From an uncultured archaeon (lineage in GTDB: Archaea; Micrarchaeota; Micrarchaeia; Micrarchaeales; CABMGC01): a DNA stretch of 64,000 bases. The stretch is taken from NCBI GenBank assembly GCA_963752955.1, contig CAVWAD010000007.1:64386-128385 (forward strand), in the 5' to 3' direction. A program made the position numbers and the translations under genes. The notes beneath the pieces are model-generated. The model saw only the letters and a program-made list of their open reading frames with translations. It had not been told where the DNA came from and did no database searches. This document shows, piece by piece, positions 31,114 through 34,362 of this stretch; within the stretch, counting starts at the first letter, position 1, and each line of letters starts with the position of its first letter.

Positions 31114-33954
31114 TCAGTATTTCACCGATGCGCGCAGCTTTCTCGCCACCTCGCTCTCCTGCGAGCCGATCTCCTTCTTCAGGCCTTTCCTGATCCCCGA
31201 CAGCGAGTGCTCTATGCCATCGTACGCGCGCGTCAGCTCCTCCAGCTGGTCGGCGTTCTTCCTCAGCCGCAGGAGCACTTCCGCGTCGGTGGTCTTCCCG
31301 ATGAGCCTCTTGTTAGCGGCGCTGAGCTTCCTGACCGACCTGCCGTACTTTATGAACTTCTTGAATGTGCCCCCAGCAACCCTGTCGAACCTTCTTCCCC
31401 ACGCGCAGACCTCGTCCATTGCGGCGGTGAGCTGGTCAGCGGTCATTGGCGCGGAGGTGGCCTTCCTGAACTTCTCGAAATCCGCCTCGCGCGCCTTCAT
31501 ATACCTGCCCAGCAGCTCGTCGGATATCCGCTTGGCGTCGTCGGCGCGCACGCCAATCTTTCCTGACGAGAAAGTCTTGTCGTACTCGTGCTTCTGCCCG
31601 CTGTTCAGCGTCGCGTAGGCCTCGTTTATCTTCTGCATTATCTGGCCGGCGTCGATCTCCTTGCTCACGTCAGGGTGGTGCTTCTTGACGAGCTCCTTGT
31701 ACGCGCGCTTTATCTCCTTCTGGTCAGTGGTGTATTTTATGCCGAGCACTCCGTAGTAGTCCGTGGCGCCGGACCCGTGCAGGTCAATGCCAAATACTGC
31801 GGCCTCCTTCTCGAGCATCTCCCTGAAGCGGTCGCTCTTGAGCAGCAGCCTCTCGGTGTACCTGTCCTTCAGCGACGCGTCGAATCGCCCGAATGCTTTG
31901 GCTGTCTTTCCCAGAAGGCCCAGCAGGGCGAGTATCAGCCGTCCGATCATAGAATTTCCGCGTCTTGCGGCGCGCTCGATCTCGCCGCTAGCGGAGTGCG
32001 CCGACGCCGGAGTCTCGCGCGTGCTGTGAGAAGGACCAGGACCGCCTCCTGAGAGCGCGGGTTTGCGTTGCGTCTTGCCCTCGAAATTCAGATGTGAAAT
32101 CTTTTTATCTTCAGTTAACGGTGATGCGCCGCGGGAGATTGCGCTTCCTTTCCTCAGGATCGTCGCGTAAGACTCATGCGCGCAGTCTCCATGGATTGTG
32201 ATCATGGATTGTGGTACGAGCTTCTCTGATCTGGATGCCGGACTCTCCTCGGCCGAGGCCACGAATCCGATTGCTTTTCCGATCGGCAGCGATTGCGGTG
32301 CGGTGCGCTGACCTGCCATAACGATATCGCCCGTGCGTTCTCTATCGTATGTCATCCATTTTCTGTGCCTCGACTTCTCCAGAGCAACGGAGCGGGCAAG
32401 ATTCGCCGAACCAAGAATCGCATGTTGCGCGTTTTGCGATGCTTCCGTTGGCGAGATGCCGCTCGCCACGGATAATGCGCCATCATTCCCAATCACGTAT
32501 ACAAGCCTTGCTACGCGAGTATGGCCTCTTGCTGCCGCATCATTTCTGCTATACTGGACGAATACCGTGGCCGGGCTCGTGGCGAGGGCGGGAGAAGAAG
32601 CGGACAGTTGCGGCATTGTCGATTGGGCGGCGATGCTTATGGGAGCGAATCCCCTCAGGGCCTTTATATCAGACGACTGGACCGAATAATGCAAGAACAT
32701 CTGGGCTCCGAGAGGGCCATAGGTTCGGGCCGCATCTTCGGCCACTGCAATCGCTTTCGATGAGCCTATGGCACCGTCCAAGAGGCCTGTCCTGGCTTTT
32801 TCATCCGTGCTAGCGTCGGGAGATATTCTGTAGGAGACCGCATTAGATATGGCGTTAGAGGCGGTATTGAAAGCGGGAGAAGCCTGTGAAGCGCCGATTG
32901 AGGGGACGGTTGTCTTCGCGAAAGTCTGGGCGAAAGGGGAGATTGTTGAAACAGCGGCAGGCGGACTGACGCGGAGATTTGTCCCCGAATCCTGCCTGAT
33001 CCAATTTTGCCTATCTGATCTGTTCACCAGATAGGATCTGTTCACCAGATGACTCGCGTCGTTCCACGTAAGTCCGTTACCGAAGACCATTGCCTTCCCT
33101 TCCAATCTGACCGCCACATCGGATCCGAAGTACCCGCCGCAGACTATGGGAACCTTTAGCCCCTGAACTTTCAGCTTATCAGAAACGCCTTCGACAACTT
33201 TCACATAGTTGGAGCCCATCATGCTGATGAACACGGCACTCGCGTTCTCCTTGAGGGCGAGGCCGGCGAGCTGATCTGGGCCGAATCCAGGCGGGCCTAG
33301 GACGACGCGGGAACCCCTCGAATGTAGTTCTTTCATTGCCTTCAGCGCGCCCAGGTCGTGCTCATCGCCGTAATCTGCGAGTATTGCGAATATCACCGTG
33401 GGGCACTTAGCGGAATCTTTCTTCAGAGCGATGTCGTTCCACAGGTCTATGCTGCCCCTTTCTATCCTCTCCATTACGCCGGGAGCCAGCAGGGCGGTGT
33501 TTTCCATGAACCATATCCCGGCAAGGATGTTCGCCTGGCCCTTCAGGCTAAGTTTCTGCAACCTTTCGATGAATCCCCTGCCAGTCAGTTTATCCGTCTC
33601 ATCGGTCGCGCCTATCGCAAGCGAGAAGTTGCCCGCTATCTTTGCGCCATTCTTACCTAGCTCCAGTATCGCGCTCAGAGTCTGAGGCCTGGTCAAGGCC
33701 GCGATATTGCCAGTGTCAAGCATGGCGCCCACCCATTCGCTGAAGGCGTGAACATCGTTTAGGCTGCTCCAGAAGCGCATCGTGCCTTCTTTCATTACCC
33801 TCGGGTCTACGATGGAGATGCTCTTGTGTAGCCACATCTCGTAAAAAATCGCGCTGACCATGTCGAAGTCCATCTTGCCGGACCAATCGAGGAATTCTTT
33901 GCTAGTAAGCGCCTCGAGCTCGGAAGTCTCGTCGATCGCCCAGAACAGGCTCAC
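31114..33954 (-). CDS. B12-binding-domain / J-domain fusion protein; the 5' end probably extends to ATG 34259 across a 1-nt indel
   Basis: 946-aa ORF. The N-terminal part has a Rossmann-like B12-binding module (ILADYGDEHDLGALK = DxHxxG; ..FISMMG..; ..IVCGGY). A long low-complexity middle follows, then the J domain DYYGVLGIKYTTDQKEIKRAYKELVKKHHPDVS.. with HPD. The frame stays open upstream of GTG 33954 without a start codon. ORF 34259..34038 joins it if the G5 run (plus-strand C5, 34122-34126) gains one base. Confidence 0.65.
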   Translation of the reverse strand: MSLFWAIDETSELEALTSKEFLDWSGKMDFDMVSAIFYEMWLHKSISIVDPRVMKEGTMRFWSSLNDVHAFSEWVGAMLDTGNIAALTRPQTLSAILELGKNGAKIAGNFSLAIGATDETDKLTGRGFIERLQKLSLKGQANILAGIWFMENTALLAPGVMERIERGSIDLWNDIALKKDSAKCPTVIFAILADYGDEHDLGALKAMKELHSRGSRVVLGPPGFGPDQLAGLALKENASAVFISMMGSNYVKVVEGVSDKLKVQGLKVPIVCGGYFGSDVAVRLEGKAMVFGNGLTWNDASHLVNRSYLVNRSDRQNWIRQDSGTNLRVSPPAAVSTISPFAQTFAKTTVPSIGASQASPAFNTASNAISNAVSYRISPDASTDEKARTGLLDGAIGSSKAIAVAEDAARTYGPLGAQMFLHYSVQSSDIKALRGFAPISIAAQSTMPQLSASSPALATSPATVFVQYSRNDAAARGHTRVARLVYVIGNDGALSVASGISPTEASQNAQHAILGSANLARSVALEKSRHRKWMTYDRERTGDIVMAGQRTAPQSLPIGKAIGFVASAEESPASRSEKLVPQSMITIHGDCAHESYATILRKGSAISRGASPLTEDKKISHLNFEGKTQRKPALSGGGPGPSHSTRETPASAHSASGEIERAARRGNSMIGRLILALLGLLGKTAKAFGRFDASLKDRYTERLLLKSDRFREMLEKEAAVFGIDLHGSGATDYYGVLGIKYTTDQKEIKRAYKELVKKHHPDVSKEIDAGQIMQKINEAYATLNSGQKHEYDKTFSSGKIGVRADDAKRISDELLGRYMKAREADFEKFRKATSAPMTADQLTAAMDEVCAWGRRFDRVAGGTFKKFIKYGRSVRKLSAANKRLIGKTTDAEVLLRLRKNADQLEELTRAYDGIEHSLSGIRKGLKKEIGSQESEVARKLRASVKY
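33017..33052 (-). repeat. 18-bp in-frame tandem duplication inside the B12/J-domain gene
   Basis: GATCTGTTCACCAGATAG / GATCTGTTCACCAGATGA (17/18 identical) encodes the duplicated peptide (S)YLVNRS-YLVNRS. Confidence 0.8.
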
Positions 33955-34362
33955 GCCGGCGATGCCGCCCAGTTTCTTGATCTCGATGACCTTTCTCGCG
34001 ACTTCCGCATCCGTAGCGCCCGGTGAGATTCTCCTGATTACCTGCGGCCCGTAAGCATCGACATGACGAAGGCCTTCCTCTTCAAGGCGTTCCTTCTCCT
34101 CGTGGAATTCCAGGTTGGTCTCCCCCTGGCGGTCTTCTTGATTAAAGTGCAGATGAGGTTGGCGGTTCTTTCTTGCAATGCTTCCCTAGTCATGGATGGC
34201 TTTTGCGTGCTCAGGGGAGGGGCGGGCTTATGCTGCACGAGGGTTTGCGCTGCCGACATTCATTCACCTACGGCTCTGCGGAGGGATGCTCCCTTCCAAA
34301 GGATGCGCTCGGCTGCACGCGCTAGTACTGTTCTAATAACAAGAGAAGTTGTTTTCATCTAT

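Follow-up and report, generated by a model that had tools for sequence, protein, structure and literature searches.

The DNA analyzed here, referred to below as the window, is a stretch of 64,000 nucleotides (nt) of contig CAVWAD010000007.1 (positions 64,386 to 128,385; GenBank assembly GCA_963752955.1) from an uncultured archaeon of the Micrarchaeota lineage, and its genes for eRF1, eIF2-gamma, S6e and CDC48 mark it as archaeal. On the minus strand, a cobalamin (vitamin B12) riboswitch is followed by sequence encoding a B12-binding head, a long low-complexity linker and a J domain. The region 31114-34259 (minus strand) is best explained as one intact gene of ~ 1,048 codons that looks broken only through one dropped G of a G6 run.

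As called, this region is divided between two open reading frames (ORFs) in different frames, namely, an ORF of 946 amino acids (aa) with a GTG start (31114..33954, minus strand) and an ORF of 73 aa (MSAAQTLVQHK..., 34038..34259, minus strand). Upstream of the GTG, the longer frame stays open for 77 codons, as far as a TAG at 34188-34186, and ATG, GTG and TTG are all absent from this interval, which the initial annotation had put at about 75 codons without a start. The minus-strand letters at the junction are CCAGGGGGAGACC, corresponding to a plus-strand C5 at 34122-34126. Insertion of one G into this G5 run produces an ORF of 1,048 aa that reads ...KKTARGETNLEFHEEKERLEEEG...; the same fusion had been proposed by the initial annotation and could be reconstructed in full. 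Codons 1-46 (MSAAQ...KKTARG, 34122..34259, minus strand), in the frame of the 73-aa ORF, would thus constitute the true 5' end. By direct sequence reading, a Shine-Dalgarno-like GGTGA (34264..34268, minus strand) lies 4 nt upstream of the ATG at 34259; no Shine-Dalgarno-like motif accompanies the alternative ATG at 34193, which corresponds to the start chosen by the gene caller in the related contig L001 (ENA contig ERZ25039471:contig_10304). The N-terminal motif of the protein family described below (..R....F.C....K; R/L..F.C) is encoded in the frame of the upstream ORF, where REALQERTANLICTLIKK aligns to it with the conserved Cys included, and the stretch above the GTG is also alignable to relatives (EEKERLEEE...HV...PGATDAEV).

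Is the missing G a property of the organism or of the assembly? A search with the repaired N-terminus matched one protein, P0001 of L001, which begins MTREALQ...KKTARGETNLEFHEEKE. In L001 the run is G6, the frame of the 5' end is uninterrupted, and the ORF reads MTREALQ...KKTARGETNLEF..., i.e., this contig encodes exactly the kind of N-terminal extension that the initial annotation had predicted. L001 is 99.3% identical to positions 23408-44195 of the window; from 28000 to 34999 there are zero substitutions, and from 33523 to 34999 the G5/G6 difference is the sole one. Nearly all substitutions between the two contigs (127 of 130), and most indels, are concentrated at 26-28 kb and at 36-40 kb, which form two islands; elsewhere, only two to three substitutions occur in about 15 kb. 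Four isolated indels, all of homopolymer length, lie outside the islands, at 33522 (C2/C3), 34127 (G5/G6), 40458 (G2/G3) and 41338 (T3/T4), and each of them breaks an ORF in one assembly only: the broken copy is that of the window at the G run and that of L001 at 33522, within the same gene, and in the eIF2-gamma gene. In addition, the CDC48/VCP AAA ATPase gene of the window (36200-38500, plus strand) shows at least four frame changes, where L001 keeps a 599-codon open frame. The Flye-style names of the related contigs (contig_NNNN) and the label of OY970071.1, a Microflora Danica metagenome-assembled genome (MAG), suggest long-read assemblies. Since L001 has G6, the isolated indels are all of homopolymer length, the CDC48 gene is multiply frameshifted and the family N-terminal motif lies in the upstream frame, the G5 run (34122..34126, minus strand) is very probably a long-read consensus error that left the sequence one base short. 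The initial annotation had treated the deficit as a slip; the pattern across the window, L001 and CDC48 is instead the signature of consensus error.

Genuine slippage, in the form of phase variation, would mean that the tract toggles between G5 and G6 and, with it, between a full-length protein and an N-terminally truncated or silent form. It could draw on the fact that tract length differs between two near-identical contigs and that the same gene holds an 18-bp tandem duplication, but five to six G is short for such a tract, and in L001 this gene is itself broken by a C2/C3 difference. Two further isolated homopolymer indels, amid almost no substitutions, break other genes (eIF2-gamma in L001), the CDC48 gene of the window is frameshifted repeatedly, and the contig names and MAG label suggest long-read data; phase variation is accordingly quite improbable. 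A real recent mutation in the strain of the window, less probable than a consensus error, still counts against an intact gene. Two further candidates were rejected. Pyrrolysine read-through of the upstream TAG fails in that a TAA closes this frame another 14 codons upstream and no start codon intervenes, and it is made needless by the G6 of L001, which accounts for the structure. Programmed -1 frameshifting or transcriptional slippage was discarded in view of the lack of a slippery heptamer, the run of only five G and the existence of an in-frame allele. In practice, a frame broken by a single base in this assembly is best taken for a consensus error as long as reads do not show otherwise.

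Two side observations concern assembly quality. The CDC48 region and the 26-28 kb segment hold nearly all substitutions between the window and L001 and may reflect consensus problems caused by a strain mixture. In contig L002, from the closest other species, a second glutamine-synthetase-like gene (14607-15769) is present in three or four small fragments, a further sign of indel errors.

The repaired protein opens with a head of two parts. Residues 47-285 (33406..34121, minus strand) form, according to an AlphaFold2 model and the family alignment, a helical solenoid of five repeats of ~ 36 aa with the motif ..IG.TGN..ALTD..F, and no family covers it in a Pfam scan. Residues 286-405 (33046..33405, minus strand) correspond to a B12-binding Rossmann domain, with DEHDLG at 33366-33349 (residues 299-304, the His being H301) followed by the SMM and GG motifs; in the window these read DEHDLG, ISMMG (Ser retained, Met in place of Leu) and CGGY. 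The initial annotation had recognized a B12-binding module here. The weak point of this assignment is the score of the window protein itself against Pfam PF02310, which at 22.6-24.2 bits stays under the gathering score of 32.1. In the family as a whole, PF02310 is matched by 42 of 49 aligned sequences (the N-terminal domain of the window protein and 48 search matches), with a best E value of 1.9e-26, and a 20-sequence family alignment shows no variation at H256 and G259 (the two named residues of xHDxG, His and Gly) or at G330 and G331 (the GG motif). With this alignment, AlphaFold2 returned a model with a predicted local distance difference test score (pLDDT) of 84.9 and a predicted template-modeling score (pTM) of 0.83, all-helical over model residues 1-235 and beta-alpha Rossmann thereafter; the single-sequence model (pLDDT 41) was unusable and was set aside in its favor. 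All 50 of the 50 Foldseek matches listed from the PDB were cobalamin proteins (mutases, corrinoid proteins, MetH, CarH), among them methylmalonyl-CoA mutase and 4r3u_C, the latter with a TM-score of 0.75 and a root-mean-square deviation of 3.0 A over 128 columns. Among the NCBIfam models, TIGR00640, the methylmalonyl-CoA mutase C-terminal domain, comes closest; the window protein stays under its cut-off (24.1 bits against 57.45), and the family member P0128 passes it. Because of the 42 of 49 matches, the invariant residues and the confident model resembling solved B12 domains, the identification of the head as a His-on cobalamin-binding Rossmann domain is nevertheless supported, and cobalamin binding is predicted. 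What had been said of this module thus holds for motifs, fold and family matches, with the sub-threshold Pfam score as a reservation.

The head is followed by a low-complexity linker, probably disordered (residues 406-772; 31945..33045, minus strand), as judged from composition and codon-position GC content. It comprises 367 aa, in reasonable agreement with the ~ 400 aa given initially, of which 56% are A, S, T, G, P, Q or N; GC1, GC2 and GC3 are flat, and there are zero stop codons over 367 codons. Residues 537-610 form a conserved island, 43% identical to L002, and a tail of 200-1000 aa exists in every family member, including one relative with 44% GC. The idea that the linker is wrong-frame or non-coding sequence was tried and rejected: 367 codons are free of stops, no other minus-strand ORF of at least 50 aa runs across the linker, the island is shared with L002, and equivalent long tails occur in the 44%-GC relative, whose base composition makes a long spurious ORF unlikely. 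At the boundary between domain and linker, 33017..33052 (minus strand) hold an in-frame 18-bp tandem duplication (LVNRSY/LVNRSD; atctggtgaacagatcct / atctggtgaacagatcag) with 16 of 18 bases identical, which Tandem Repeats Finder did not report and direct sequence reading confirmed. The initial annotation had described this duplication correctly and taken it as a sign of replication slippage in the gene. The repeat is identical in L001 and sits inside a lineage-specific insertion, so that it represents a fixed in-frame feature and is uninformative on the G run.

The C-terminal part of the protein is a J module. It begins with a short hydrophobic helix (MIGRLILALLGLLGK), a basic amphipathic F..F motif and a conserved pre-J helix (31762..31950, minus strand); the pre-J segment is conserved in stand-alone J proteins (P0002-P0007), and the same F(R/K)xF helix terminates many family members that have no J domain. 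The J domain itself (residues 834-897; 31570..31761, minus strand), noted initially as canonical and HPD-bearing, scores 55.5 bits against Pfam PF00226 (gathering score 27.8, E = 6.4e-15). Its HPD motif, in the context KKHHPDVSK (31677-31669), occupies residues 862-864 of the repaired protein and is invariant across P0002-P0007. A profile search of the PDB returned the J domains of CbpA and DnaJ, with E values down to 1e-21 and matches that end where the J domain ends. The remainder, together with the stop codon (31114..31569, minus strand), encodes a conserved helical domain of 150 aa with many invariant columns across P0002-P0007, a VC.W motif (V178, C179, W181) among them, for which there was no Pfam or PDB sequence match. 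For the last 275 aa as a whole, six full-length homologues were found (P0002-P0007), all stand-alone proteins of 271-331 aa that are 41-74% identical; a metagenome scan with the module was swamped by generic J domains and yielded nothing useful. Pfam detected only PF00226, and neither DnaJ_C (PF01556) nor the zinc finger (PF00684), in the window protein and P0002-P0007. Since the J domain alone matches the PDB or Pfam, the sequences indicate that the module is a class-C J protein and not DnaJ or CbpA, although JGI labels the homologues 'curved DNA-binding protein CbpA'.

A further question is whether the two halves truly belong to one protein. The rival view is that the single ORF of 946 or 1,048 aa is an assembly artifact and that the organism has a B12-binding protein and a J protein encoded by two genes. 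The assembly is rich in indel errors; in L005, the B12-head and J genes are adjacent and overlap by 4 nt; and in L002 they are called as proteins of 773 and 331 aa. However, L001, an independent assembly, is identical over the entire linker/J junction, with the frame open throughout. The two L002 frames overlap by ~ 70 codons, and residues 723-770 of the window protein are homologous to an L002 stretch that lies upstream of, and includes, the N-terminus of the called J ORF; given this overlap and a homology that extends upstream beyond the called J start, the two L002 genes may be the pieces of a broken fusion. Moreover, the fusion recurs. It is present in the window and in six other 50%-identity clusters (P0126, P0149, P0150, P0159, P0160 and P0162), and identical fused proteins come from independent assemblies: L099, a JGI metagenome contig; L101 with L102; and L103 (NCBI GCA_021817125.1) with L104. 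Some of the sources are short-read or NCBI assemblies, Logan records included. We therefore consider the two-gene interpretation very unlikely. The pairing of a B12-binding and a J domain, singled out by the initial annotation as unusual, is accordingly a recurrent architecture. Lastly, on chromosome OY970071.1 (1.21 Mb), the head and J genes lie ~ 600 kb apart. Two genes that are fused in some related genomes, adjacent in others and separate in yet others classically encode cooperating proteins, and the pattern suggests that the B12 head and the J protein work together.

The extent of the head family was assessed with an exhaustive HMMER search of the N-terminal 387 aa against 1.84 billion representative proteins, which gave 50 matches, 38 of them with E values under 1e-10. 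The closest members comprise 500-1,374 aa and share 23-34% identity with the N-terminal domain of the window protein over most of the query. Word-indexed protein searches, with the N-terminal domain alone or with the 20-sequence profile, returned only the protein itself and one mutase, and the nearest protein outside the family is the mutase P0193. According to source names and to all 13 of 13 loci in GTDB species genomes, the members belong to Candidatus Micrarchaeota, with one partial member of one cluster labelled Marsarchaeota; in the databases searched here, the family thus appears only in Micrarchaeota (DPANN archaea). Four kinds of C-terminus were distinguished among the tails examined: a strongly hydrophobic one, a basic amphipathic F(R/K)xF helix, C[YFH]CSCH and the J module. 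The Cys-rich type (e.g., KVCYCSCHWG, PCYCSCHA) is found among the J-less paralogues P0146, P0154, P0161, P0167 and L016, and other J-less paralogues end in a hydrophobic, tail-anchor-like helix or in the basic amphipathic helix.

Upstream of the gene lies the riboswitch (34360..34509, minus strand; Rfam match to RF00174 at 34369-34501). In the window, the Rfam model gives 33.5 bits against a gathering score of 31.5, and on homologous leaders 35-46 bits; a covariance model built from five elements scores the window element at 164.5 bits. Among eight homologous elements, compensatory changes affect 10 base pairs, and pairing is kept in 96.2% of cells, in an alignment fitted to the model built from five of these eight sequences; none of 500 shuffles reached the observed values, and slid controls paired at 27-39%. 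Using both Rfam and the covariance model, the riboswitch was located directly upstream of the gene in the window, L001, L002, L005, L014, L015, L099, L101/L102 and L103/L104, and every J-linked member with upstream DNA has one. The same two models did not detect it in 11 paralogue loci (L006-L013 and L016-L018), and no J gene was found within the fetched flanks of these loci. In a rough neighbor-joining tree, the riboswitch-bearing, J-linked members occupy deeper branches, and most of the switch-less paralogues cluster together. As a side observation, the switch-less paralogue is closely followed by a 5S rRNA gene in L006 (7586-7699) and, at a distance of ~ 3 kb, by another in L007 (10508-10621).

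How might this element act? Its 3' tail, CCACGAGCATGG (34374-34363, minus strand), is invariant in the five model-building elements and includes an ATG. Because the main ORF of L005, L014 and P0126 (L099) starts at this ATG, the arrangement suggests translational control by the riboswitch. Three other loci fit this less readily: in the window, L002 (~ 2667-2686) and L015 (~ 3116-3141), the tail ATG opens an ORF of only 3-5 codons (MDR, MEK and MVICL, respectively, each followed by a stop), and the main start lies 65-110 nt downstream. In the window, the mini-ORF has three codons (ATG GAT AGA TGA; 34355..34366, minus strand), and the 3' end of the riboswitch precedes the ATG at 34259 by 110 nt, close to the ~ 100 nt stated initially.

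These features make it possible to propose a function. In bacteria, B12 riboswitches typically repress genes for uptake, biosynthesis or B12-independent isozymes when B12 is present. By analogy, plentiful cobalamin would probably shut translation off, and the protein would be produced under B12 scarcity. The head, whose closest relatives are mutase-type domains binding adenosylcobalamin (AdoCbl), would capture cobalamin or retain it; the J domain would bring the DnaK/Hsp70 of the cell to the head-cofactor complex or to its partner; and Hsp70 would power the release or transfer of the cofactor or the remodeling of the partner that receives it. Such a protein could serve as a device for cofactor acquisition and trafficking in a reduced symbiont that probably scavenges B12. 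On balance, we consider it probable that the locus is an intact gene for a B12 head/J fusion behind a riboswitch, with a role in Hsp70-coupled trafficking under B12 scarcity. The Hsp70-coupled cobalamin mechanism, taken separately and resting on analogy, is tentative and somewhat doubtful, and the architecture and family assignment are much firmer than the mechanism. An Hsp70 partner is plausible because DnaK, DnaJ and GrpE are reported to be encoded by 61% of Micrarchaeota genomes (PMC8407392) and by many DPANN (PMC8204110). Several points weigh against the proposal: the off-with-ligand direction is assumed from bacterial precedent, the role of the J module is argued from analogy, tblastn did not find DnaK in the 64-kb window or the fetched loci, and genes for B12-dependent enzymes or B12 transport were not found in the 64-kb window.

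Could the head instead be a sensor? In that case, it would sense light or B12 in the manner of CarH and gate J-domain/Hsp70 activity, and the protein would be a regulated co-chaperone. The Foldseek matches do include CarH and other B12 photoreceptor domains, with their arrangement of a helical cap plus a Rossmann domain, and B12-binding domains fused to effector modules are a known photoreceptor design. However, the window protein contains neither a MerR nor any other DNA-binding Pfam domain, inspection of the repaired protein did not reveal the Wx9EH motif (there is no W with EH at +10/+11), and the best sequence relatives are the C-terminal domains of mutases. A riboswitch that presumably lowers expression in abundant B12 would also be ill-suited to a sensor that requires B12, and we regard this alternative as unlikely. 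According to another alternative, the protein is the small subunit of a B12-dependent mutase with acquired extra domains, serving catalysis and not trafficking. Here, the affinity to mutases counts in its favor, since the methylmalonyl-CoA mutase C-terminal domain is the NCBIfam model nearest to the protein and is passed by P0128, and the closest protein outside the family is mutase P0193. Yet the window protein reaches 24 bits against the cut-off of 57 (TIGR00640), and no match to the catalytic subunit (PF01642) was present among the 20 larger window ORFs scanned with Pfam or among the genes listed as called in the related loci. Repression by B12 riboswitches is not usual for B12-dependent enzymes, and a long disordered tail, membrane-type C-termini and a J module are not features of an enzyme subunit. 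We find a mutase subunit extremely improbable. If the protein is made when B12 is scarce, scavenging, holding or trafficking of cobalamin fits better than a B12-dependent enzyme or a B12-requiring photoreceptor.

Comparison with known systems places the parts of the protein in familiar groups. With class C (type III) J proteins that carry a client module, such as HscB (Fe-S hand-over), the membrane-anchored DjlA and Mycoplasma TopJ, it shares a canonical HPD J domain, the lack of a G/F region, zinc finger and DnaJ_C, and the attachment of the J domain to a module that would determine its client or location; with TopJ, it also shares a long low-complexity segment. In contrast to these proteins, its J domain stands near the C-terminus behind a cobalamin-binding head and is followed by the conserved 150-aa domain without known relatives. 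To our knowledge, no other J protein has a B12-binding domain, and literature searches found none, in line with the remark in the initial annotation that such a pairing had not been seen described. With the PF02310 domains of methylmalonyl-CoA mutase, MtaC, MttC, MetH and CarH, the head has in common the xHDxG His ligand, the GG motif, the alpha/beta fold and an N-terminal helical region packed on the domain. It differs from them in that a 240-aa solenoid of five repeats takes the N-terminal place of the four-helix cap, neither a catalytic nor a DNA-binding partner was found, a disordered tail of 200-1000 aa follows, and the family was found only in Micrarchaeota.

The regulatory element resembles bacterial cobalamin-riboswitch regulons (btuB, btuFCD, cob, metE, nrd) in having an RF00174 aptamer in a same-strand 5' leader and, in several relatives, a start codon within the conserved 3' tail of the riboswitch. 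Here, however, the host is an archaeon, and the regulated gene encodes a cytoplasmic-type B12-binding J protein, not a transporter or biosynthetic enzyme. The closest functional analogies to the proposed activity are HscB/HscA, which release Fe-S from IscU, and MeaB/MMAA, which gate the transfer of AdoCbl to the mutase. The G-protein chaperones MeaB/MMAA and the IcmF fusions would share with the fusion the concept of a nucleoside triphosphate-driven chaperone that is coupled, for loading or unloading of the cofactor, to a mutase-type B12 domain; the Foldseek matches of the head model include 8dpb and 8gju. In the present case, the motor would be a J-recruited Hsp70 and not a G protein, so that the likeness is one of function only.

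Several other features of the window and related loci may be mentioned. The gene is flanked on each side by a pair consisting of an antitoxin-like small ORF and a PIN-domain (VapC-like) ORF (30401-31035, minus strand, and 34643-35260, plus strand), and the downstream pair is conserved in L002. At 4424-7243 (plus strand), a protein of 939 aa with six divergent InlB B-repeat (Flg_new_2) domains and a glycine-rich domain is encoded, probably a surface protein, and the GC3 of its gene (0.71) is below that of its neighbors. Eight large same-strand ORFs scanned at 14297-25854 (plus strand; 276-640 aa, high GC3) gave no Pfam match, and an ORF with a DDE transposase domain (PF01609) at 47946-49355 (minus strand) indicates a mobile element in the window. 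Intein-containing genes were noted in the related contigs, namely, that for a HATPase_c protein in L001 (1-644) and that for aIF-2/IF-2 with LAGLIDADG and intein domains in L101 (6075-8399).

The J domain, the B12-binding Rossmann domain and the RF00174 riboswitch are each known individually. As far as the searchable literature shows, the new elements are their combination, the solenoid head, the conserved tail of the J module, the restriction to Micrarchaeota and an archaeal cobalamin riboswitch. According to reviews, the fluoride riboswitch is the only one shown experimentally in archaea (PMC8241225), and cobalamin is not listed among the riboswitch classes predicted there (PMC8281238). If the present element is what it appears to be, a natural and conserved cobalamin riboswitch would be a class new to Archaea. 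In its strongest form, the proposal describes an Hsp70-powered machine for cobalamin capture and hand-over in Micrarchaeota, in which the head would sit on a long, flexible tether, the J domain would recruit DnaK for loading or unloading of the cofactor, and the riboswitch would induce expression upon B12 starvation, the whole forming the first coherent archaeal cobalamin-riboswitch regulon; this full version is possible but, in our view, doubtful. Known cobalamin trafficking relies on G-protein chaperones and adenosyltransferases, so that a route through Hsp70 and a J protein would, if true, be new. The riboswitch would likewise mark a gene regulated by B12 in reduced symbionts and could thereby offer an entry point into how DPANN archaea acquire cofactors from their hosts.

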